A stretch of 62,410 nucleotides of DNA, the filler included, from Stramenopiles sp. TOSAG23-2 (Eukaryota): NCBI GenBank assembly GCA_900128395.1. It is 6 parts of 6 records of this genome, joined end to end, with 100 filler letters (N's around TTAATTAATTAA, not from the genome) between each part and the next. Parts side by side here need not be neighbours in the genome. Positions count along the whole stretch, not along the records: positions 10,426 to 20,747 come from LT650029.1; 5 more parts are not named here. The stretch is one strand, 5' to 3'. This document shows positions 1 through 49,528 of this stretch, piece after piece; within the stretch, counting starts at the first letter, position 1; each line of letters starts with the position of its first letter. The position numbers and the translations under genes are program-made. A model generated the notes under the pieces. The model made no database searches. It saw only the letters and a list, made by a program, of their open reading frames with translations, and was not told where the DNA came from.

Positions 1-10
1 TTTAGAACAA

Positions 11-3000
11 TTGTATGAAACGATGATGACGGAACGATTAAAAAGTCATCAAACACGTCAATTTCCATTGGAATGGGTTATCGATGCAGCATTGCGGTTT
101 CGACGGGAAGTTGATATGAAACCATTAGTAACTGTCATAGAAGGAGCAGCGGAAACCAGAGCAAGAGAAAAAGCTGGTTTGCCAGATCCACCTTGGGGCA
201 CGAAAGTTCCAATTCATACGTATGTTGAACATATAGACCCGCGTGATACGGTCCGACTGTCGCCTATTTTAAAGGAACGAGTACAAGATGTTATTGATGA
301 ATATGGACCTCCAAATAAAACAGTTACTTGGGTTCATATGGATGGGCATGAAGAGGAAGTTTCTACACCGCTGAAAAAGCCAGAATTTTGTTTTATAATC
401 AAAACGGCCATTGAACAGAGCCATGTAAATCTATTAAATACATGTGGTCGGACGCCATTGTTCAAATGCGTAGACCCTTTGCGTTTATTGCTAAAACGAG
501 GACATGTCGATTGTGCAAATAATTTATTAAATGAGCATCAAGCCGATACACGAGTTTTAGATCAGAAAAAAGTTTCAGTAGAGGATATAATTCGTGGAAT
601 TCACTATCGCAAGGAAAAGACAGATGAAAATGATGAAGATGCGGATAAATCAAGCAGTGAGGACGAGGATAGCGAGGAGGATGGCGCAGTCGTAACTTCA
701 CCATTACCTACAAGAAATGATGCGGGACACGATAGTGGCAGTGAAATAGAAACGGATAGCGAATCTGAAGATGATGATATTTTTGGCCCTAAGGGTAGGG
801 AACATAAAGTGCATGCATCTTTAAAATTTATGAATAAATGGAGTGATAAAGTTTGGTTTCCACTGAGGAACAAAGCGGAACATCTTCGATCTTGTAAAGC
901 ATGGGCGGAGTATACAAGCGTGGGAAACGATTTTACATTTTTTTTTCACAAGCGTGAAGCTTCGACGCAAATACACACTCCTTTGGTAGTTGAGCAAGTT
1001 CAAAAAGAACTCCTTGGATGGGCATTGCTGCGAGAGCAATCGGATTTAGTACAAACAGATACGCATGGCTGGATTGAGTTTATAGACAAGAATGCAACAG
1101 GGGAGCCTTTCTACTATTATCCACAAATGAGAAAAAGCCAATGGAGCAGACCTGTGACATTTGAACCATTGGAAGATTCTAAAGAAGGACTTTCAATCGC
1201 AGCTGAGAAAGAGCGCCAAAAATTGTTAGATGAAAAGACAAAATTAGGGTGGGCGCGTCTGAGTGCTATGAATAAGGAAGAATGGGCTGAATTTCGGCGA
1301 GATTCTACGAAATTGCGAAAAATTGGCCAACTTGATGAATATAGACATGATGAAAGTGGTGGCTTATTTTACTATTCCGAGGATGCTGAAGACAGTGTAT
1401 GGGAAAAACCGAAGGAATTTTTAGCGTTAGAAAAAAGGAAATATAGTTGGCATCTGATTAATCACATGAGCAGAGCAAGATGGCAAGATTTGCTAGATAG
1501 GTCTGAAACAATTAGGCAAATCGATGAATATCATGAGAAAAGGGAGGAAAGGCATGGTTTAATCTTCTATTATAACGAAGACATGGACGTTTGTGATTGG
1601 GCAAAACCGCAAGCCGTTTTACAAGAGGAACAAAATAGATTTGGGAACGAAGTTGGTGGGGAAACTATTGATGATTGGGAAAGAGTTGCGCGTTCATCCA
1701 CATCGCTTCGTACGCTAGCCGCGTGGGAAGAGTTCAGAAACGAAGCTCATGGCGTAATATTCTATGTTAGCACTCGTGGTTATGGTGGTAGTTGGATGAA
1801 ACCAGATAAATTTCTTCGTGCAGAGAAGCGTCACCATGGGTTTGAACTCTTTGCAACACAGGAGTTTGAAGATTATGAAAAATTGAGGAAAAGATCAAAA
1901 CGATTGCGATCAGTTGATCCATGGGAGGAGTGGAGAGATGAAGTTACTGGAGTAGTTTATTATTTTCACAAGCATGAAGAAAATACACAATGGAAAAAAC
2001 CGCATACGATTGTTAAAGCAGAGCAACAACGTAATTTGTGGACACGCAGATACGAATTGTCATCGGAAATTGAAAAAATAGGCCCTTGGGAAGTTAGGCG
2101 AGATAACAATAGTAAAACGGAAGAGGAGGGCATGTGGTGGACAAATACAGAGACTTGTGTGGTTCTGAGCGAACGACCAGCTGAAATGGATGAAGAAGAT
2201 CGTCGTATGCGCCGAAAGCATGCTTTGACGCGGACACAAACGGATGAAGAGTGGAAACAAATGCACGCTGAAGCTGATATTATGCGGGCTGTTGGGCCTT
2301 GGGAAGAATTACACCATCACCCTACCGGTTCGCTGTTCTATTTTAATTCTGACACGGATCGCTATCATTGGGAAAAACCAGAGGAGTTATTGTTAGCAGA
2401 AAAAACAAAACGCGGGACCGATTTAGTTGCAAAAGAGAGACCTGAAGATTGGAGACGAATTCGGACTGAATCTGAAGTGTTACGTACTGTTGGTGATTGG
2501 TCCGAGCTTAGAAATGAGGAAACAGGAATCGTTTTTTACTTCAATTCTACTAGTGTGCAATCATTATGGCATAGGCCAGATGCAATTAAAGAATTAGAGC
2601 AGAAAAAACGTGGATGGTGGATGGTCAACAAACAAACAAGAGAGCAATGGGATCAAATGATTGGTGGGTCTACTTTGCTTCGTGAATTTGAGGCAATGCA
2701 AGAATGGCGTCATCGTGAGACACTAGCAATTTTCTACAATGATATTGTCACTGAAACGACTTCATGGGATAAGCCAGCTATTTTGGTTAAACATGATCGT
2801 GATTCATTAGCTCCTGAAATGGGAGGGTGGTCAGACAGGGAATGGGGATTGGTACGCATGCGGTCGGAAAAAATGCGACGCGTCAATGCATGGCATGAAT
2901 TGCGTGACGGTGCTACCTCTGTTATATTTTATTACAATGACGATACTGGACATTATCAACTGAATAAATCTGAACCTGTATTAGAAAACGAGAAGAGAAA

Positions 3001-6000
3001 AAGGGCATGGACTCTGGTACGGAAACAAAAACATGGTGATTGGGCCGAAATGCGATCCCATAGTAGTGTATTACGAAATGTCTTACATTATCAAGAATTA
3101 AGAGACGATCTTACGCAAGCAGTGTTTTACTACGATACGAAAAGTCCTGTTGGTCAATGCAGCTGGAAAAAACCAGATGAACTGTGGGAATATGAAAAAG
3201 TTGAACGTGGGAGGCAAATTGTTAAAAATCAACCTCCAGAAGATTGGTTAGATTTACGCTTACGAGCGCAAGAAATTCGTCGTATTAAGCGTTGGTTCGA
3301 GTTTCGTGAACCAGATACCGGGATGACGTTTTATTTTAATGATGATACAGAAGAAAGCAGTTGGGAAAAGCCAATTGAAATAATTGATTACGATGCTATC
3401 TCAAGGGGTTGGCAGAGAATTTTGAACGAATCGAAGGATGTGGAAGAAACTCACCTTGATGGTAAGTGGGAAGAAATTATCGAGGATAGATTTGGGGCAA
3501 CGTTTTATAAGAATACAAAGGAACTTCGTTGTGCAAAATTACCATTTTGTCAATGGGCTAAACCACAAGACATCATTGATGTAGAAGATGCTGAGCGACT
3601 TAAAATTAAATTGAATAGACCGATTGCGCTATGTGAAGAATTTATCTCCGATGTCACCAATTGGACGAGAATTTTACAGCGTAGCAAAAAAATTCGAAAT
3701 AAGCCGTATCTAAACAATGGTTGGGTAGAATACTTTGATGATTACTCTGGGATTCACTTCTTTCATAAAGAAGATCAACTTGGTCAAAATAATCCATACT
3801 CAGATAGCATAGAGCTGAAGCAAAATTCTTTAGACGGTGGTGGTAGCGGATTTAAAGGAATTGGCCAAGCATCATCGATTGCGGAGGTTCAGGTTTCTTT
3901 CGTTAAACCACACGCATTTCGAAAATACGATCGGAAAATGTTCTTTTGGGCTACTCTCATTCGACGCTCGATAAAATTACGCACGTTTACACAGAAAGGC
4001 TGGACGGAATACGTGGATACGCGGTTGAACGATTACTTTTATGTTCATGAGAAAGACGAGTTGCGTTCATGGAAAAAGCCGAGTGAAATTTTGAAAGATG
4101 ACGAAGATGAGGCATGGGAGGTAATCATTGCTGATGTAGAGCAGGTCTTAGGTCATGAGCAACGTGGTCCTAGTGGTTGGAAAGTTATGAGACACAAATT
4201 ATCTAAGCAACAAGTGTATCATCACAAACATCTAGGTTGTACATGGATTAAACCACAAGCAGTAATTGATGATAGTAGGGCGTTACAGCGTAAAAAGAAA
4301 GAATTGGAAGACTTAGAAAGAAGGAGCAAGACTTTAGAAAGGGATAAAGCAGATGCAAAAAGAATCGGTGGGTACCTAGCCCATGCCAAGAAAATTAAGG
4401 AAAGCATCGTATTAGCTAGTGAAAATTTGCTAGATGACAATTTTGAAAGTGATCAAGAGGATGATGACGAGGATATGACACAAGAGGAAAAACATTTGTT
4501 AAAATTAAAACGAAGGCGTGAACGTTTAGCGTTAGTGTTGGAAGAAGATGATAGATTAAGAAGAAATAAAAAGAAAAAGAAAAATATGACGCGTAGAAAA
4601 CGCCGTTTAGGGGAAAGGTTGGCTCATTCAAAACAATTATTATCAGAAATCCATTTATTTGTTGAAGAAGCCACAGAAAGAAAGAATTTGGGATTTCAAA
4701 TATGTACATGGGGTTGTGGTGAGTGGCTATTGATGGCGGAGCAAAAGCATCATGTGGCAAATACTTGCCCCAAGCGGATGCTGCCTTGTAATTTGAAGTG
4801 TGGACTCTTTCTTCGAGCTGAATTTTGGGATTGGGCTGGAACTAGGGAAACACATGAAGAAAATGAATGTGTCAAAAGAAAGGTCATGTGTCCACAAGGT
4901 TGTAAAAAAGCGGTTGTGTTTGAAGATTTGGAAGTTCATTGTCAAACCCAATGTGCAAAAAGACGTATTCCACCATTGCATTGTCGTCTAGATTGTGGTA
5001 TGGTGTGGATTGGCGGTATGGATAGGTACAAAGCTATGTTGCAGGAACGAGAAGAGCATGAGAAAGAAGAATGCCAAGAAAGAATTGTCCAATGTGATTG
5101 GGTCAATATCAAGAAGGATAACATGCGATGCATGGCAGAGGTTAAAGCTAAAGATCTTCGAGCACATCGACAAGAACATGTTAAAACATTTGGTATCAGT
5201 TATTTCAGAGTACATGGTGGGCATTCTTACAAAGTTCCACGTAAGACGAAAGAGTTAAAGTTTCAACTATGGGGAGGTGGTGGCGGTGGTGGGCATTTAT
5301 TTGGTAGTAACGGTGGTGGTGGAACCGGTGGGGGTGGTGGTTATATTGAGGGTATTTTAAAAGTAACACCTGGAGAAACACTAGACATTGTTGTAGGAGC
5401 TGGTGGTGATGGTGGTGTTCACGGAACATTAATTCCAAATAAAAATTCGTTGGCAGAAGCTAAATACGATATGGGTATTGCATATGGTGGTGAACCTGGT
5501 GGCGGTAATGGATATGCATCCAATGGTGCATGGGCTGCTGGTGCTGGAGGAGGATTTACTGCAATTTTTCGAAATGGACCATGGGGCAAAGAGACTATCC
5601 TTGTCGCTGGTGGCGGCGGAGGTGGTGGTTCAAGAAATGGTTGTCCAGGAGGAGGATTTGAAGGTGGCCAAACGGCTGATGATCCAAGAAATGGCAAAGG
5701 CGGTACACAACTTGAAGGTGGTGAAGGTGGCCATTTTCCATTAAATGAAAATTGGTCCTGGGATGGCGATGAAAATAATATTATAGGTAAAGAGGGTGGG
5801 CAATGGCAAGGTGGACATGGATCAATTTTTGGTGCAGGTGGTGGAGGTGGTTTCTTTGGTGGTGGTGGTGGTGGATCAACACCAGGTATTGTTGGTGGCG
5901 GCGGTGGTGGTTCGTCTTACGCAAGTGACGCTGTTAAGCATGTTGTAACTTTAATTGGTGAAGTTGATCAGCCAGGTGGTATGAATAGAAAACCACCAAC

Positions 6001-6136
6001 TGCGGTTGGTTTGGGAGAGTGGGACCCAATTGCGGGATTTGCTGGGCAAGGTGGCCCTGCAAACGAAAAAATGGTTGAACGTGGTAGAGATGGTTGTGTC
6101 ATTATTCGAACACCAGGGTTTTATCAATTAGACTGA
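11..6136 (+). CDS. Giant multidomain protein, probably 5'-partial: ankyrin-like segment, ~17 WW-like repeats, coiled coil, TRAF-type zinc fingers, C-terminal glycine-rich domain
   Basis: 2041-aa ORF open from the contig edge. Repeats W-x-E-x-x-D/H-x-x-TG-x-x-FYYN-x(5-6)-W-x-KP; CTWGC/CNLKC/CPQGC/CRLDC..H...C fingers; LWGGGGGGG...GGGGGSSY tail. Confidence 0.85.
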   Translation: MYETMMTERLKSHQTRQFPLEWVIDAALRFRREVDMKPLVTVIEGAAETRAREKAGLPDPPWGTKVPIHTYVEHIDPRDTVRLSPILKERVQDVIDEYGPPNKTVTWVHMDGHEEEVSTPLKKPEFCFIIKTAIEQSHVNLLNTCGRTPLFKCVDPLRLLLKRGHVDCANNLLNEHQADTRVLDQKKVSVEDIIRGIHYRKEKTDENDEDADKSSSEDEDSEEDGAVVTSPLPTRNDAGHDSGSEIETDSESEDDDIFGPKGREHKVHASLKFMNKWSDKVWFPLRNKAEHLRSCKAWAEYTSVGNDFTFFFHKREASTQIHTPLVVEQVQKELLGWALLREQSDLVQTDTHGWIEFIDKNATGEPFYYYPQMRKSQWSRPVTFEPLEDSKEGLSIAAEKERQKLLDEKTKLGWARLSAMNKEEWAEFRRDSTKLRKIGQLDEYRHDESGGLFYYSEDAEDSVWEKPKEFLALEKRKYSWHLINHMSRARWQDLLDRSETIRQIDEYHEKREERHGLIFYYNEDMDVCDWAKPQAVLQEEQNRFGNEVGGETIDDWERVARSSTSLRTLAAWEEFRNEAHGVIFYVSTRGYGGSWMKPDKFLRAEKRHHGFELFATQEFEDYEKLRKRSKRLRSVDPWEEWRDEVTGVVYYFHKHEENTQWKKPHTIVKAEQQRNLWTRRYELSSEIEKIGPWEVRRDNNSKTEEEGMWWTNTETCVVLSERPAEMDEEDRRMRRKHALTRTQTDEEWKQMHAEADIMRAVGPWEELHHHPTGSLFYFNSDTDRYHWEKPEELLLAEKTKRGTDLVAKERPEDWRRIRTESEVLRTVGDWSELRNEETGIVFYFNSTSVQSLWHRPDAIKELEQKKRGWWMVNKQTREQWDQMIGGSTLLREFEAMQEWRHRETLAIFYNDIVTETTSWDKPAILVKHDRDSLAPEMGGWSDREWGLVRMRSEKMRRVNAWHELRDGATSVIFYYNDDTGHYQLNKSEPVLENEKRKRAWTLVRKQKHGDWAEMRSHSSVLRNVLHYQELRDDLTQAVFYYDTKSPVGQCSWKKPDELWEYEKVERGRQIVKNQPPEDWLDLRLRAQEIRRIKRWFEFREPDTGMTFYFNDDTEESSWEKPIEIIDYDAISRGWQRILNESKDVEETHLDGKWEEIIEDRFGATFYKNTKELRCAKLPFCQWAKPQDIIDVEDAERLKIKLNRPIALCEEFISDVTNWTRILQRSKKIRNKPYLNNGWVEYFDDYSGIHFFHKEDQLGQNNPYSDSIELKQNSLDGGGSGFKGIGQASSIAEVQVSFVKPHAFRKYDRKMFFWATLIRRSIKLRTFTQKGWTEYVDTRLNDYFYVHEKDELRSWKKPSEILKDDEDEAWEVIIADVEQVLGHEQRGPSGWKVMRHKLSKQQVYHHKHLGCTWIKPQAVIDDSRALQRKKKELEDLERRSKTLERDKADAKRIGGYLAHAKKIKESIVLASENLLDDNFESDQEDDDEDMTQEEKHLLKLKRRRERLALVLEEDDRLRRNKKKKKNMTRRKRRLGERLAHSKQLLSEIHLFVEEATERKNLGFQICTWGCGEWLLMAEQKHHVANTCPKRMLPCNLKCGLFLRAEFWDWAGTRETHEENECVKRKVMCPQGCKKAVVFEDLEVHCQTQCAKRRIPPLHCRLDCGMVWIGGMDRYKAMLQEREEHEKEECQERIVQCDWVNIKKDNMRCMAEVKAKDLRAHRQEHVKTFGISYFRVHGGHSYKVPRKTKELKFQLWGGGGGGGHLFGSNGGGGTGGGGGYIEGILKVTPGETLDIVVGAGGDGGVHGTLIPNKNSLAEAKYDMGIAYGGEPGGGNGYASNGAWAAGAGGGFTAIFRNGPWGKETILVAGGGGGGGSRNGCPGGGFEGGQTADDPRNGKGGTQLEGGEGGHFPLNENWSWDGDENNIIGKEGGQWQGGHGSIFGAGGGGGFFGGGGGGSTPGIVGGGGGGSSYASDAVKHVVTLIGEVDQPGGMNRKPPTAVGLGEWDPIAGFAGQGGPANEKMVERGRDGCVIIRTPGFYQLD

Positions 6137-10713: not shown

Positions 10714-11094
10714 ATGGCTGTTGCATTTTTAATGGTATTATTATTTTTATTGTTTTGCTTCATTTCAACTAATGCATGTTCCGATCCAAATCATCACCAT
10801 CATCAATTAAACAACTTGAACTCATTCCCACGTCGGAGTGATGTCCTTTTAACATCACGATCACCACATCTCCAACCGCCATTTCCAACTGGTGTTGGGT
10901 CTGGTTCTGGTGAATATAGTACATGGGATGCAGCCCGATTGTTTCATGCAACACGACTTGACTGGGTATATACATTGAATTCAACATTTGTTTCAGAGGC
11001 ACATTCCAATTTGCATAATCTTTCAATTGTTAGTTTAGCTATGAATCCACAAATACCTGATGCCTATTTCCAATTTCTATGCCCTGTTGAGTAA
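10714..11094 (+). CDS. Secreted protein, probably truncated N-terminal fragment of a larger enzyme
   Basis: Hydrophobic signal peptide (MAVAFLMVLLFLLFCFISTNA) followed by globular-looking sequence (FHATRLDWVY) that ends abruptly. Confidence 0.5.
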   Translation: MAVAFLMVLLFLLFCFISTNACSDPNHHHHQLNNLNSFPRRSDVLLTSRSPHLQPPFPTGVGSGSGEYSTWDAARLFHATRLDWVYTLNSTFVSEAHSNLHNLSIVSLAMNPQIPDAYFQFLCPVE

Positions 11095-11342
11095 AAAATG
11101 GAATGTTAGAGGCCGAAAAATCGAGAAAATCGAAAATCGAAAGAGTGAAAAAGAGAAGAGCAATTTGTTGATTATAATAATACACTGTTATTATAGACAT
11201 ACTACCATACTACTACTACTATATAAAAATACGTTTTGACATATTTCTTAAAAGTGCGTGAATTTTTATAGCAGATACCAGGTTATCTATTTATATTTTA
11301 TAGCTACATACCGGGTAAACAACGTAATATTAATACCTTAAT

Positions 11343-13130
11343 ATGACGTCGGCTTTGAATCGAAGATTGTATCTGTACAAAAACTTTATACGACTCTCAT
11401 CACTTTCTTCTTTTCCACTCTCCGTCGAATCTTCTTTGCTGGTTTGCACCTTTTTTAAATGAGTTGAAAAATTATAAAGATATATGTAATATGTATGCCC
11501 ATGTAGCTTTCCACCGTTTGTTTATTCCATATATTAGAAGACTACCACCAGTGATACAATAAGATCAGAATTAATAATGCAAGTCCATCCAATCCAATCC
11601 CATGTTGGATTGACGGGAAAAGAATTTATTGGATTATCTTCACCACGTACAATTACAATAATAAATAATAAATTAAAAGTAACAAATGTTCATGTAGTAG
11701 AACTGGGAGAAAGTTCAAAAACATCATATGCGTGTTTAACAAATACCATATTAAGAAGTTTAAAACTAACGTCTGCTCCTTTAATGTTGCCACCACAATA
11801 TATAACTACATCGTTTTCAACACCTATTTCATGTATTTTATTAAATGAAGAGACAAAGGAAACCATGGAACTTAAAAATTCTACCTTTCGCTTACAACGC
11901 CATATTACAATGGAATTAAATATTGCTAAAAAGAAAAATTTGAAACAGAAACAATTAGTTGCTTTTAAAATTTCATCTCCACGAAATACCACAACTTATT
12001 GCGATATTGTTGTGCTTCCTCAAAAACGTAATGATGATGACGGTGATACAACCATACATGTATATATGGATACAGATGAAGTCAATAGTTCTATGTATAA
12101 AGATGCTTTATCATATGATTTATATATTCAAAGTGAAGTTCAACATGATAATTTATTAATGAATTTTACTCCAATAATGCATGTTGATACGATAATCGAT
12201 GATGGAAGAAAAAATGTATGGGATATTGAACAACAACCTAGGCCAAATAAACAATTATATCCAATTGCAAATGAAACTGATATTGTTGAAAATATTCATT
12301 TTCAAAATCCATCATCAGATATTAATGTAAAAGATGCGGAGTTGACAATTGATACAAGTAATAGACATTTACATCTATCACCAGAAGATTTATCAATATT
12401 GTTTCCAGGGAAAAAACTTCGTTTAAAAAAAGCAGTTGCATATATTCCTGAATTCATTGCAAAATATACTGGATTTGCAGCAAAAGAAACAGTGACTATT
12501 CGAAATGTTGAAACTGGAGATGAGATAAGACATTTAAGAGTGTTAGGTCCAGTACGTAAACGTACTCAAATTGAACTTGCATATACAGATTGTTTAAATC
12601 TTGGCGTTGAAGCACCTGCACGTATCTCAGGTGATAATGTCAATTCAGGTGCAAAATGTATATTAATAGCTGAGGATGATGATGGTAATTTAACAAACAA
12701 CCAAGTAGAATTGAAATCTGGTATTGTCCGTGCATGGCGACATTTACATATATATGAAGATCCAATTGCAGAACGATTAGGCGTTGTTTCAGGTGATTTA
12801 TTAACAGTTGGTATAAAATCACCAAAAAATACAACAATTTTTCATGATGTGTTAGTTCGAGTTGGAAACGATCCAGATGGTGTTCCTGGCTCTGGATTTG
12901 TTTCGAGTATAATTTCTTATTTAAAACCAACATTATTGGCATATGGTTATCCAGCATTACGTTTTGTTAGAGGTACTGGCGATGCAATGTATATACATTT
13001 AGATACAGATGAAGCAAATGCTGCATGTATAGGGAATGCAACTAATTATACGTTATATCAACAAATTGGAAAAGAAAAATTACGATTGATTGGTACTACA
13101 CGATTGGAAACTAAAGAATCGAAAATGTAG
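11343..13130 (+). CDS. pduL: PduL/PTAC-family phosphate acyltransferase with degenerate N-terminal duplicate. Predicted exons 11343-11441 and 11538-13130.
   Basis: SNRHLHLS, FAAKETV, RVLGPVRKRTQIEL, RISGD, AWRHLHI, FHDVLVRV and HLDTDEANAA match PduL. The 517-aa ORF (11577-13130) is open upstream to a TAG acceptor at 11535-11537; phase-0 donor CTG|GTTTGC at 11442. Exon 1 is less certain than the domain call. Confidence 0.85.
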
Positions 13131-13457
13131 TGGTCTTATGAGGAAAGTGTATTTCTATTATTGTTTTTTATTTTTTATTCCAGTTTGTTTTTTATAATTC
13201 TTCAGTATACTATCAAGTATACATTCCTTTATAAATTATTGCCACATCTTTGCACCAGTGAGAAAAAATAAAAACGTTGGCGTTGAACGGAATGTTGCGA
13301 AATAAATATGAGAATACGAAGTATATATTAATAGTATTATACTATAATGTTTATATATAATAAGAAGAGAGAGGATCAAAAAACAACATTATTCTCACTT
13401 TTACATCTGCATTTTTTGTCGTATGAATATATATATATTTAAAAATAAGAAAGAGAT

Positions 13458-15929: not shown

Positions 15930-16835
15930 CTAATCTTTAATAAATACTTTTGGCCTACTAAATATATTGATAGCATCTTCTATCTCTTGAATTTTACGTT
16001 CCAAATTTGCTTTTTTTCTGATAGCACTTGGTGTTTCCACTAACAACGGCATACGTTGTAAATGATCTTTTGTAGCTGCTAAATTGTCTTTTAATATTTT
16101 TAATGTATCAAGTCTTTCCTCCTCTGGCATTAAACTCATACCTGCAGGTGCTTTTTTATTTTCCTCTGCACGTCTTTTTCTTGCTGCATCCTCTGCCATT
16201 TCAGCTTTACGCTCCTGTAAATACAATGGTACTTTACCATAGTTATCACCACTTTTTTGTATGCCAGCATTTGCATCTTCATTATCTTTTTTCTTTGGTG
16301 GAGATGAGGTAACAGCTTCACGTCGATTTTCTGCTATAAAATTTTTTTCTTGTCTTGCTGGCATAGTAATAACTTCACCACGTTTTGGAACAGCTGGTTT
16401 CCGTGTTTCTCGGTTGTTACTACTTTTGACTGGAGAATGACGAGTGTTTTCACGTGCTTTTGCAATTCTTTGCTCGCGAATACGTTTGTTTTTTTCTGCT
16501 AGTTTTGCTTTCTGTTCTTTACGTTCCGTTCTCATACGAGCTGTTTCTTTTGCAATTTCAGATGCTTTCTTTGAATCATTTTGTGCTACACGTGGTTTCA
16601 CATCTTGAAAACGTTTCATTTTGAATTTTCTTGGCTTCGCATCTGCTTTTTGTTGCCTTCGTTCTCTGTTCTCTTGCTGTTTCTCACGCAAAATTCTTAT
16701 ATTTTCCCGTGCATGGTTTCTAGGCTCAATACCTCTTCTACGTTGTACATCTCGTATACCACGTACTGGGTTCATTAAATCACCAACTGCTGAACCTTTT
16801 TTATTATATTTCCTTGCTATCCTTGATGCGTCCAT
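15930..16835 (-). CDS. ENKD1: Enkurin domain-containing protein (ciliary/centriolar)
   Basis: NHARENIRILRE; YGKVPLYLQERK; MPEEERLDTL; IEDAINIFSRPKVFI. Confidence 0.85.
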   Translation of the reverse strand: MDASRIARKYNKKGSAVGDLMNPVRGIRDVQRRRGIEPRNHARENIRILREKQQENRERRQQKADAKPRKFKMKRFQDVKPRVAQNDSKKASEIAKETARMRTERKEQKAKLAEKNKRIREQRIAKARENTRHSPVKSSNNRETRKPAVPKRGEVITMPARQEKNFIAENRREAVTSSPPKKKDNEDANAGIQKSGDNYGKVPLYLQERKAEMAEDAARKRRAEENKKAPAGMSLMPEEERLDTLKILKDNLAATKDHLQRMPLLVETPSAIRKKANLERKIQEIEDAINIFSRPKVFIKD

Positions 16836-20747: not shown

Positions 20748-20847
20748 NNNNNNNNNNNNNNNNNNNNNNNNNNNNNNNNNNNNNNNNNNNNTTAATTAAT
20801 TAANNNNNNNNNNNNNNNNNNNNNNNNNNNNNNNNNNNNNNNNNNNN
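20748..20847. other. Artificial contig linker
   Basis: 44N-TTAATTAATTAA-44N. Confidence 0.99.
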
Positions 20848-27360: not shown

Positions 27361-28714
27361 TTACAAGTCATAATTAAAAGTATCAAAAGAATCACCCCAC
27401 ATTGATTTTATTAACTTCTTCTGTTCATCTGTTAAATTCCTACTTTTTGTGCTTTTCTTGTAACCTTTTAAGGAATCAAGATATTCAACAACACGTTGTT
27501 TCATACCTGATTCGACAAAATCATCCCAATGAAAATGCGAATAAATATCTGTAAGCTTCTTCAATGGATTTTTGTTTAATTCATCAAAAGAAAGTTCAAA
27601 TAAATTTTCTTTTGGTATTAGTTTACGATCACGAACGTAATTTTTATATAATGTTTGATATTGCCAAATTATGAAATCAATCACCTCCTCATTTGTTGGT
27701 GTATTTAAATAACTATACCAATATGCGGTATCAGCCATCCTAGCAGCAGAGAGGAATACATCGTATGGGTTCCGGTGTATATATATGAATTTTGCATTTG
27801 GAAATAATTGATACAATAATTTTACGCGTCCAGTATGTACTGGTGATTTAATCAACAATGGTTTAGATTTTGCAGTTCCATCCCACGTATTTGTGTATCT
27901 TAATGTTACTTTTTTCATCAGAAACAAGAAGGATTCCAACCATAGCTTTTGCTCTTGCTTTGTACCACCATTTTCAAAATTAATGTAATTGCGATATTCT
28001 TTTTCATTTTTCATAAATACAATTGGCTGATAGTAACTGGTACCCTTTGACAAAACATTGACTCCTAGCTCATCTTCTTGTGGGGAGTCCTTTAATGCGT
28101 GATGCAATATAGGAGAAAGAGGGAGTGTTATGTTAGAAAAAATTCTCCATAAGAGGTTTCGGGAAAGAGAATTTACATACCAACGTCAACGCCATATTAT
28201 CCATTGGGCGTTTATTATCAACAACATTCTTCAGATATACTTTGAAACGTTCTAATAGCAAAAATCCAGAAGGAAAACCTGCTTGAAACGTGTTTGTATA
28301 AGCAAATTTTGAATCTAACGATAGGAGATTAAATAAATGTGTTGTGCCAGTTCTTGGATGACCTAAAATAAACACGGGCCTATCATTTAACTCTTGACGT
28401 TGAATAGCTTTACCATAGATAAAATGTTCTATGCTTGAAACAAATGAGTTATTAATAGACATAATTGTAATAAACAAAAGCCTCGGCCAATATGTGGCAA
28501 ATTCAATATCGTATTTTCTACGCCAAAGTACAGATAACCATGCAAATAATGTTATTCCAGATAAAATATTATTTTTTGTTTCCATTTGGAATTTAGGTGT
28601 AAAATTGTAAATTGAAGCTGATCTATCCTCAGGTTGTTTTTTCTTAAAAATAACAATAGATATTATTGTTGTTACAACAAGTGTTGCAATAATATATCCA
28701 TATTGAAGTTCCAT
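27361..28714 (-). CDS. Sulfotransferase (P-loop, Sulfotransfer_3-like) with N-terminal TM anchor. Exons 28714-28181 and 28089-27361.
   Basis: PVFILGHPRTGTTHL, KSPVHTGR, FIYIHRNPY. A 91-bp intron (GTATGT...CTAAC...AAG) joins RPMDNMALTL to DSPQEDE in frame. Confidence 0.88.
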
Positions 28715-30503: not shown

Positions 30504-30769
30504 ATGAAACAGGAAGTATTAATTTGAGTAATATTTAATGTACGATGCGTATGAATAATAGAATAATATGCATTAAATATGATATTCAATTATTAGGGGA
30601 CTTTTCTGGCCCTATATTGATAAATAAAACATATTATACACAGCAGGTACAACTACTCCGTACTCAACCAAAAAACACGTAAATATGATGGGAATGTGTG
30701 AAAATGTAACAAATTGTAATTTATTTGTGTGATGGATTACTTAATTAGATGTACAACTTCACCATTGTA

Positions 30770-31168
30770 TCATTTCACTTGTCTATATTCGCCTCCTTTT
30801 GCCTTAGCTTCTTCAGCCCTTACTTTAGCGGCTTCTTCTACTTTTGCCTCAGCTTCTTCTCTCGCTTCGCGCAACTTCTCGTGCTTCTGCTTTTGCTTTA
30901 GCTTCTTGTGCTTGCTGTTGTGCAGCTTCTCGTGCTTCTTCTGCTTTTGCTTTAGCAGCTTCTTCTGCTTTTGCTTTAGCTTCTTCTGCTTGCTGTTTAG
31001 CAGCTTCCCGTGCTTCTTCTGCTTTTGCTTTAGCTTCTTCTGCTTGCTGTTGTGCAGCTTCTCGTGCTTCTTCTGCTTTTGCTTTAGCTTCTTCTGCTTG
31101 CTGTTGTGCAGCCTCTTCTGCTTTTGCTTTAGCAGCTTCTTCTGCTTTTGCTTTAGCTTCTTCTGCTT
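30770..31168 (-). CDS. 3' fragment of an Ala/Glu/Lys-rich repetitive coiled-coil protein; frameshift near 30868
   Basis: Minus strand reads AEEAKAKAEEAREAAQQQ repeats. The upstream frame stops at 30849-30851 while the same repeat continues in another frame to TGA at 30770-30772. Confidence 0.65.
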   Translation of the reverse strand, partial: KQKKLKQKQKKLLKQKQKRLHNSKQKKLKQKQKKHEKLHNSKQKKLKQKQKKHGKLLNSKQKKLKQKQKKLLKQKQKKHEKLHNSKHKKLKQKQKHEKLREAREEAEAKVEEAAKVRAEEAKAKGGEYRQVK

Positions 31169-31268
31169 NNNNNNNNNNNNNNNNNNNNNNNNNNNNNNNN
31201 NNNNNNNNNNNNTTAATTAATTAANNNNNNNNNNNNNNNNNNNNNNNNNNNNNNNNNNNNNNNNNNNN
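31169..31268. other. Artificial contig linker
   Basis: 44N-TTAATTAATTAA-44N. Confidence 0.99.
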
Positions 31269-48799: not shown

Positions 48800-49528
48800 C
48801 TACAACTTCGATTTGACTGGACGCCCAGTAACAAACAATTCTTCACCAATGATTTTTTCTAATTTAATCAATGCATCAATACCATCAATATCATCCACCA
48901 TTACACGAATAGTATGAATCCCCATTTTTCGTGCTGGTTTTAAATTTGCACCGATATCATCAAGAAAAACTGCTTCATTTGCTTTTATATTACCAGCTTC
49001 CTTCAATGCTAATTCATATATACGTACATCTGGTTTGCGTAACCCTACAATACTACTTTCAATGACAACATCGAAAATTTCTTGTACCGTCTTTGCTTGA
49101 CCTGGTATACCTTCACTTTCATCTGTAGTTTCATCTTCCTCATCTGATTGAAAATTATTTGTCAAAGCTAAGGTTTTAATTCCTAATTTGTGTAATTTCA
49201 TCAAAGTTTCATAATAACCTCTACGTGCAATTGTATCACCTGCACTTATTGCTTCCATTACCTTTTTTCCAGAAACTTGTAATAGTTCTTTATTTGCATT
49301 ACCATCTTTAACCATTTCCTTCAATTCAATATCATATTTATATACAAATTGTGTTGTCGTAATCTCACCTCTTTCCATTTGACCCCATGTTTTACAATTT
49401 CCAATATGCCTATTTAGTGAATTATGTTCCAATCCAATTTTTCGTTCGACTTCCCCTAACCGTCCAATTGGGGATGAAAAGACAACACCACCAAGATCAA
49501 ATATTACTGCTTTGATGGATGATGGCAT
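48800..49528 (-). CDS. HAD-family hydrolase (ACAD10/EPHX2 N-terminal-like) with PTS1 signal
   Basis: AVIFDLGGV, LTNN, FDVVIES...RKPD, FLDDIGANL; ends in SKL. Confidence 0.88.
   Translation of the reverse strand: MPSSIKAVIFDLGGVVFSSPIGRLGEVERKIGLEHNSLNRHIGNCKTWGQMERGEITTTQFVYKYDIELKEMVKDGNANKELLQVSGKKVMEAISAGDTIARRGYYETLMKLHKLGIKTLALTNNFQSDEEDETTDESEGIPGQAKTVQEIFDVVIESSIVGLRKPDVRIYELALKEAGNIKANEAVFLDDIGANLKPARKMGIHTIRVMVDDIDGIDALIKLEKIIGEELFVTGRPVKSKL

Follow-up and report, generated by a model that had tools for sequence, protein, structure and literature searches.

The PduL Locus and Its Gene Model

In bacteria, PduL counts as a signature enzyme of microcompartments, where it recycles coenzyme A (CoA) within a closed shell. 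The present analysis deals with a PduL gene in a eukaryotic genome, located in a window of 62,410 nucleotides (the whole stretch of DNA analysed, filler included) from Stramenopiles sp. TOSAG23-2 (assembly GCA_900128395.1), on the part that comes from record LT650029.1. The gene consists of an uninterrupted coding sequence at positions 11577-13130 on the plus strand, which encodes 517 amino acids plus a stop codon without any intron, as seen from the listing of open reading frames (ORFs), the Pfam PTAC domain and the end-to-end alignment of orthologues. The latter comprise 514-533 residues, are alignable over the full length of the protein and share the same start methionine. The product is a PduL-PduL tandem. 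Its N-terminal half (residues 1-252, positions 11577-12332) is composed of a diverged, presumably dead PduL copy (residues ~1-200) and a linker, and its C-terminal half (residues 253-497, positions 12333-13067) is predicted to be a catalytically competent PduL domain. The protein ends in Ser-Lys-Met (SKM, positions 13119-13127), a tripeptide of the peroxisomal targeting signal type 1 (PTS1) that is kept in relatives.

All motifs named in the original prediction are found in the sequence, each of them on the plus strand of the C-terminal half. The first RHxH motif (SNRHLH, 12357-12374) contains the putative Zn1 ligands H264 and H266 in invariant alignment columns, and GPVRKRTQIE (12546-12575) provides the putative phosphate contact R327 and the Zn1 ligand E333. 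The second RHxH motif (RHLH, 12738-12749; WRHLH, 12735-12749) features the Zn2 ligands H389 and H391, and HLDTDEANAA (12996-13025) contributes the Zn2 ligand H474. The extent of the gene has to be corrected. The coding sequence had been placed at 11343-13130, while the real start is at 11577, so that the annotation now lacks both the 5' exon and the mitochondrial leader proposed with it. Two other N-termini among the relatives were considered and rejected. The N-terminus MFTRMSRRF... of P0139, a candidate for an alternative leader, is the +1 reading of the 5' codons seen in L004 and is interpreted here as a frameshifted gene call. P0157 (716 residues) probably results from the fusion of an upstream gene into its gene model, given that its internal MIEINS start is kept.

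The region upstream of the start codon contains an ORF of 39 codons plus TGA (11343-11462, plus strand), which the original prediction had used as exon 1 and joined to the PduL frame by a 96-bp phase-0 intron (11442-11537). The geometry of this proposal is present in the window, since GT...AG at these positions links the ATG at 11343 to the ORF without a frame shift; nevertheless, the arrangement is not conserved among strains with 99% identity. For this comparison, 480 nucleotides upstream of the ORF were aligned with L001-L003, three contigs whose PduL proteins are 99% identical to that of the window. The frame starting at the upstream ATG comprises 39 codons in the window and 28 codons in L002, where it diverges after codon 12, and in L001 and L003 a 1-nt deletion reduces it to MTWL-stop. 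The upstream ATG and the main ATG of the four sequences lie 234, 278, 309, and 286 nt apart, the insertions and deletions in the putative exon are not divisible by three, and the proposed acceptor TTAG is altered to TTAA in L001 and L003. The collapse of the frame, the loss of the acceptor and the shifts in spacing indicate that the upstream region evolves as non-coding DNA, which makes the small ORF a strain-specific feature outside the protein. Likewise, in L004, a 61% orthologue, an in-frame TAA directly adjoins the start codon. The start methionine itself is shared by five out of five aligned orthologues (MQVHP, MNVHA, MNVHA, MIVHP, and MIEIN; identities of 61, 61, 41, and 40%). Residues 2-12 form beta-strands of the fold in the full-length model with a predicted local distance difference test (pLDDT) value of 89, and residue 8 of the N-half model is aligned with residue 46 of the PduL crystal structure 5cuo_A. 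Hence, the Arg/Ser/Leu-rich leader of mitochondrial type is not supported: its frame is unconserved, and the conserved start methionine is part of the folded domain. Contigs from four RNA runs leave positions 11324-11566 uncovered, with no joints among them.

The sole homology-supported intron looked at in the window is located in a sulfotransferase gene on the minus strand, where it (~88 nt, about 28089-28176) separates the ORFs 28133-28714 and 27361-28107. Its donor reads GTATGT, unlike the GTTTGC of the proposed PduL intron, its branch site is CTAAC-like, and its acceptor is AG.

A Predicted Pair of Live and Dead PduL Domains

The assignment of the protein to the PduL family, as originally proposed, was confirmed by a search with PF06130, which resulted in an E-value of 7.9e-47 and a score of 159.7 bits, the cutoff being 25; the PTAC match spans residues 258-432 plus a second stretch. 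A match to PF01515 (PTA_PTB) was not obtained at E≤0.1, in agreement with the earlier statement that the enzyme is unrelated to Pta. The sole solved relative found by sequence is PduL of Rhodopseudomonas palustris (rPduL; PDB 5cuo, E 6e-19). According to the structural report, its Zn1 is bound by His48, His50, and Glu109 and its Zn2 by His157, His159, and His204, with Arg103 sitting on the phosphate (PMC4784909). In the alignment with 5cuo, H48, H50, E109, H157, H159, H204, and R103 correspond to H264, H266, E333, H389, H391, H474, and R327 of the window protein. All seven residues are kept in the window C-half, and the same holds for the five bacterial rows tabulated and for 10 further eukaryote-type sequences (C-halves or single-domain forms). 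The AlphaFold2 model of the full-length protein reached a mean pLDDT of 84.3 and a predicted template modeling (pTM) score of 0.87. Its residues 253-494 were superimposed via structure match on 5cuo_A with Z 18.6 and a root mean square deviation (rmsd) of 1.8 Å over 184 of 188 residues, and Foldseek matched the C-half model to 5cuo with E 4.5e-16 and a template modeling score of 0.87. The ESM Atlas contributed matches to bacterial PTAC clusters exclusively, with scores ≤0.84. The Pfam match, the kept ligands and the model match to 5cuo together establish the PduL identity; the C-half is modeled with the two-beta-barrel PduL fold, retains the complete set of di-zinc active-site residues and is predicted to be a phosphotransacylase.

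Within the C-half, a hydrophobic insertion of ~38 residues (residues 433-470, positions 12873-12986, plus strand) is confined to the tandem clade and absent from the bacterial and single-domain rows. It is modeled as a helix at residues 441-465 with low confidence (pLDDT 47-63) and might anchor the protein in a membrane, serve as a lid or form an acyl pocket. In P0004 and P0005, the insertion resembles a stretch of transmembrane length.

The N-half, as judged from its sequence, represents a second PduL copy that was overlooked in the original prediction. Residues 1-252 match residues 253-517 in BLASTP (E 4e-12, 24% identity), the N-half alone scores 31.2 bits with PTAC of Pfam against the cutoff of 25, and a hidden Markov model of bacterial PduLs yields 34.9 bits for the window N-half and 35-95 bits for the N-halves of seven out of seven full tandem proteins. 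The N-half model (pLDDT 73.9), computed from an alignment made of PduL homologues, matches 5cuo_A with Z 13.1 and rmsd 2.7 Å over 158 of 188 residues, the next match having Z 6.5. Equivalents of H266, R327, E333, and H391 are substituted in all five N-halves tabulated, and the position corresponding to H474 is occupied by Tyr in three of these five. In the window protein, the replacements are H266 to G, R327 to S, E333 to C, H391 to T, and H474 to Y. With these replacements, the N-half lacks metal and phosphate ligands of PduL and is predicted to be catalytically dead. The linker that follows it (…VWDIEQQPRPNKQLYP…) is similar to the tail found at the C-terminus of eukaryotic PduLs with a single domain, which fits a duplication of a unit made up of domain plus tail. 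Since rPduL is described as a homodimer, present in the crystal and in solution (PMC4784909), the N-half probably serves as a built-in pseudo-partner of the C-half, i.e., a fused stand-in for the second subunit.

The least degenerate N-half was observed in the P0280 cluster, with 94.6 bits and RSVH replacing RHxH. The gene calls of P0280, P0547, P0548, and P0549, from a GC-rich organism, all end at …LHDLLTAL, ahead of HLDTDE, and this common stop probably marks an exon boundary.

Genomic Setting and Bacterial Kinship

PduL of the window is a nuclear eukaryotic gene. The earlier description of an AT-rich, host-like gene on the same contig as an Enkurin gene was found to be accurate: its G+C content at third codon positions (GC3) is 0.137, at the low end compared with 0.145-0.385 for the neighbors, and an ORF with an Enkurin domain is located at 15930-16835 on the minus strand. 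Further ORFs around PduL carry RRM, SDR, GH28, 2OG-Fe(II) oxygenase, GH35, Tesmin and F-box/TCR domains, and Maestro-HEAT, RCC1, WW, sulfotransferase and Ephrin-receptor-like domains were detected as well. Contigs L001-L003, which belong to another assembly, are collinear with the window downstream of PduL, and two of them (L001 and L003) extend into the Enkurin gene. In four marine RNA libraries (oligo-dT/poly(A), four studies), contigs match pieces of the interval 11616-13147 with 0-5 differences, and contigs with 100% identity are present in the libraries of all four studies. Shell domains (PF00936, PF03319) were not found in any of the 29 window ORFs scanned. The PduL protein lacks an N-terminal extension of the encapsulation type, its ORF beginning at the first strand of the fold. 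The original proposal of a PduL of bacterial origin, domesticated by a eukaryotic host, is supported.

Upstream of the gene, the window (11063-11220) lacks ~2.6 kb that are present in L002 (380-2969), whereby a gene for a signal-peptide protein is reduced to an ORF of 126 residues (10714-11094). L001 instead carries an ORF for the C-terminal part of a dynein heavy chain upstream, and 3.5 kb upstream in L001 and L003 (1-3557) have no match in the window. This structural difference may reflect either haplotype variation or an error of assembly. A fragment of the axonemal dynein heavy chain on L001 matched named sequences at 43-51% identity, from a barnacle and other animals, the stramenopile alga Phaeothamnion, chytrids and Perkinsus, and this spread gives no taxonomic resolution. 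Elsewhere in the window, runs of N occur at 20748-20847 and around 30732-31220, one of which removes the 5' part of the GH35 beta-galactosidase gene. An ORF of >2040 residues at 2-6136 (plus strand), open at the window edge, features WW domains and a glycine-rich domain of the ALK/LTK type. Taken with the Ephrin-receptor-like and Maestro-HEAT proteins, this domain content would be compatible with a holozoan but is no proof of such an affiliation.

Relatives of the protein are not restricted to this genome. Full-length relatives originate from ENA, Tara, EukProt and JGI, accompanied by a 290-residue MMETSP transcript (word-indexed search), and single-domain forms of the eukaryote type came to light when the C-half was used as query. 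Using phmmer against 1.84 billion representatives, 1070 matches were obtained at E≤1e-3, including 11 at E≤1e-30, three of which are fragments. One relative, P0164, is the EukProt accession of a transcript of the choanoflagellate Helgoeca nana. The objection raised along with the original prediction, that eukaryotic PduL might be widespread and already described, applies in one part: a small clade does exist (the 11 matches mentioned), and a description of it was not found. The literature, judged from titles and abstracts together with passages of four sources (PMC10579272, PMC4784909, 10.1101/2025.11.08.687404, and PMC4046809), revealed no account of a eukaryotic or peroxisomal PduL, with supplementary gene lists of papers on protist gene transfer or peroxisome proteomes as a place where the family could be mentioned. 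PduL-PduL tandems outside the eukaryote-type clade were not present among the matches listed (120, 120, and 150; proteins ≤905 residues).

Phylogenetic analyses place these sequences together. In a quick tree of 76 rows, six tandem C-halves, five single-domain forms and five N-halves are separated from 60 bacterial rows by a branch with 99% support in the Shimodaira-Hasegawa-like approximate likelihood ratio test (SH-aLRT). In a second quick tree of 122 rows, 26 eukaryote-type rows group together (98%) and include the N-halves, which form a single group of their own (92). A careful tree of 73 rows, from which N-halves, the fragments P0287, P0289, P0303, and P0315, the gappy P0298 and the partial P0282 were left out, supports the eukaryote-type group (14 rows) with 100/96, a Planctomycetota-like group (16 rows) with 100/96 and both together with 99/96, rooted on a Firmicutes row. 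By these sequence comparisons, a eukaryote-only PduL clade appears as sister to the PduLs of Planctomycetota. A profile of the sister clade retrieved 79 loci titled Planctomycetota among the 80 best genome loci. In Bremerella cremea, the corresponding locus (L052, 5159-10701) has the order DeoR, PduL, BMC, BMC, acetate kinase, EutN, and aldehyde dehydrogenase, including two BMC-H proteins and a vertex protein of the EutN type. The position of a planctomycete PduL in such a microcompartment locus indicates that the closest bacterial relatives are true enzymes of microcompartments. In addition, the acetate kinase of this locus offers a planctomycete query for finding a partner that might have been transferred along with PduL.

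Peroxisomal-Type Signals

The PTS1 consensus is of the [SAC][KRH][LMI] type, and this pattern was used as the strict definition. The signals were called by consensus patterns. Among the 15 eukaryote-type representatives, eight carry a strict PTS1 and two more end in the looser ANL or PKL. Besides the SKM of the window protein, the C-termini read SKM in P0005 and P0135, SKI in P0002, SKL in P0003, P0006, and P0164 (Helgoeca), AKM in P0004, SRM in P0157, SRL in P0278, ANL in P0162/P0537, and PKL in P0166. Of the five representatives without a PTS1, three bear an N-terminal nonapeptide, R[VA]x5HL, similar to the type 2 signal (PTS2): RAAAIAGHL in P0165, RVRHLSRHL in P0280 (RVRHL[SA]RHL in four out of four cluster members) and RVEILQNHL in P0284. 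P0552, the full-length cluster mate of P0284, ends in SQK and is on that account classed as a PTS2-only form. Within clusters, 33 of 41 members end in AKM, SKM, SKI, or SRM, and PTS1-type ends persist across lineages to about 38% identity despite changes in the length of the tail.

The background of such signals is low. Strict PTS1 ends occur in 1 of 355 other PduL matches, and the PTS2 pattern was found in 3 of 355, with one of these matches falling on the RHxH motif. In the window, two of 35 ORFs of at least 100 residues have a PTS1 end, namely PduL and a hydrolase of the HAD family (PF00702, E 8.8e-15; 48800-49528, minus strand), which ends in SKL and provides the one hint in the window at peroxisomes in this organism. 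That PTS1 and PTS2 replace each other inside a single clade argues most strongly for conservation of the destination rather than of the sequence. The SKM end together with the clade-wide signals suggests that the window PduL is imported into the peroxisomal matrix. Of the earlier proposal of an organellar enzyme in mitochondria, the first part is very probably right; the conserved signals are of peroxisomal type (PTS1 and PTS2-like) and not mitochondrial. P0162 and P0537 additionally feature an internal …NMAKM with a 19-residue extension behind it that terminates in ANL, which looks as though a newer PTS1 had taken the place of an older one.

Proposed Function and Alternative Explanations

These features are consistent with a microcompartment PduL that was transferred to and adapted by a eukaryotic host, became a tandem of a dead and a live copy and moved to peroxisomes, where it would catalyze acyl-CoA + Pi <-> acyl-phosphate + CoA; this proposal is regarded as moderately probable. 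The gene would have been acquired from a lineage related to Planctomycetota, with the bacterial N-terminal extension lost after the transfer. A tandem duplication, including the C-terminal tail, may have followed in one eukaryotic sub-lineage, after which the N-terminal copy would have lost its metal and phosphate ligands and the C-terminal copy would have retained the di-zinc active site. The protein would be imported into the peroxisomal matrix by means of its C-terminal SKM, where the C-half could phosphorolyze acetyl-CoA or propionyl-CoA from beta-oxidation. This would free the CoA pool of the organelle, and the small acyl-phosphate might leave or feed an acetate or propionate kinase. A more far-reaching version states that the peroxisomes of several marine protist lineages, among them a choanoflagellate and the flagellate of the window, run a metabolosome-like module derived from microcompartments of the Planctomycetota type, with the thioester energy exported as acyl-phosphate for substrate-level ATP synthesis by acetate/propionate kinase and the dead copy as a dimer surrogate. 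This version is put forward tentatively, as a possibility on the doubtful side.

Several points weigh against the proposal. Signatures of NCBIfam also indicate a phosphate propanoyltransferase, yet with scores under the curated cutoffs (PRK15070, 164.1 vs. 209; BMC_EutD_Gpos, 122.8 vs. 315), which suggests a member of the PduL family and not an equivalog of the characterized bacterial enzymes. The alignment behind the N-half model is biased toward the PduL fold by its composition. The RNA evidence consists of contigs, i.e., of presence in RNA libraries, which is no proof of transcription. The root of the careful tree is assumed, and its bacterial rows are the best matches plus 43 of 79 other bacterial rows rather than the whole family; both limit any statement about the donor. 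The targeting signals were called from consensus patterns, and P0167, which starts inside the motif, and the partial P0282 are without a complete signal as called. Besides, SKM is a weaker PTS1 than SKL, and in the window protein it is directly preceded by Glu.

This Glu also suits the alternative of a cytosolic PduL, according to which the terminal tripeptides are non-functional and the enzyme forms or consumes acetyl-phosphate as partner of acetate kinase or phosphoketolase, as Pta does in other protists. PduL is described as a substitute for Pta in some bacteria (PMC10579272). However, PTS1-type ends are kept down to about 38% identity even with an altered tail length, a PTS2-like N-terminus is found where PTS1 is absent, and the background is as low as 1/355 and 2/35. 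A cytosolic enzyme is considered unlikely. The alternative of a peroxisomal enzyme that works in the reverse direction (acyl-phosphate to acyl-CoA) or on another substrate, such as longer or branched acyl-CoAs, is consistent with the reversibility of the reaction and with the substrate preference differing among homologues (PMC4784909). It further builds on the insertion at residues 433-470, a feature of the tandem clade only, in which an acyl pocket or a membrane anchor might be seen. The present evidence discriminates neither direction nor substrate; such a role is judged quite unlikely.

The remaining alternatives concern the gene itself. A spliced 5' exon (11343-11441) encoding a mitochondrial presequence, with the enzyme located in mitochondria, agrees with the frame and GT/AG geometry of this single haplotype, with a basic, Ser/Leu-rich upstream peptide and with an RNA contig coverage that leaves the proposed 11441/11538 junction uncovered. 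Nevertheless, the comparative evidence renders it very improbable: beside a 99%-identical protein, the strains have MTWL-stop (L001/L003), a diverged frame (L002), an acceptor changed from AG to AA and a varied spacing, the TAA of L004 abuts the ATG, and the start methionine, shared by five of five, is followed by strands of the fold at residues 2-12. A bacterial contamination or an assembly chimera in place of a eukaryotic gene could be suspected since the PduL family is otherwise bacterial and since the window contains assembly gaps and the structural difference just upstream (11063/11220). This appears scarcely conceivable: three further contigs join PduL to the same downstream eukaryotic genes, the GC3 of 0.137 is neighbor-like, poly(A)-selected RNA libraries contain the gene, relatives occur in eukaryotic transcriptomes, and none of the 80 best bacterial genome loci is closer than the Planctomycetota sister clade. 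A transferred, tandem and probably peroxisomal PduL is retained as the preferred reading.

Implications

If this reading is true, a solution for cofactor recycling that arose in a bacterial organelle with a protein shell was passed on to a eukaryotic organelle bounded by a membrane, and a third eukaryotic source of acyl-phosphate, independent of Pta and Xfp, would exist. Moreover, it would offer a testable answer to how some protists handle acetyl-CoA and propionyl-CoA and the trapped CoA pool in their peroxisomes, and it would provide structural biologists with a natural "fused dimer" of PduL. New in this analysis are the dead-plus-live tandem as predicted here, the peroxisomal-type signals across a eukaryote-only clade and the apparent kinship to microcompartments of Planctomycetota.

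Comparison With Known Systems

The PduL of bacterial metabolosomes (PF06130; 5cuo, Planctomycetota) shares the predicted fold, the di-zinc ligands and the phosphate-binding Arg with the window PduL, and the proposed role is alike, i.e., the recycling of CoA in a closed compartment. In contrast, the window gene is nuclear, lacks an extension of the encapsulation type and is without shell genes in the 29 window ORFs scanned. Further differences from bacterial PduL are the tandem of a putative pseudo-enzyme and an enzyme, the clade-specific insertion "AYIPEFIAKYTGF", the hydrophobic insertion of ~38 residues and the PTS1-type tail. Unlike the curated bacterial PduL groups, the window protein also scores below the subfamily cutoffs of NCBIfam. 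Bacterial fused PduLs (Ack-PduL and PduO-like PF01923-PduL) are multi-domain proteins as well; still, they contain one PduL domain each, and the fusion partner is a different enzyme, unlike in the PduL-PduL tandem.

Eukaryotic routes to and from acetyl-phosphate are the Pta-Ack and Xfp-Ack pathways of Chlamydomonas, Phytophthora and fungi. The same acyl-phosphate intermediate would be made or used by the window PduL, whose fold is unrelated to that of Pta, as reflected by the lack of a PF01515 match. These pathways are located in the mitochondrion, plastid or cytosol, whereas the window PduL is predicted to be peroxisomal, with a putative kinase partner. The presence of Pta in some eukaryotes is also mentioned in PMC4784909. 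In chemical terms, PduL phosphorolysis would save the energy of the thioester as acyl-phosphate, which sets the proposed enzyme apart from other means of releasing CoA in peroxisomes. The latter include carnitine acetyltransferase and acyl-CoA thioesterases. They fulfill the same logical job, in that CoA is freed from short acyl-CoA so that the acyl unit leaves, but they do so with other chemistry and share no homology with PduL.

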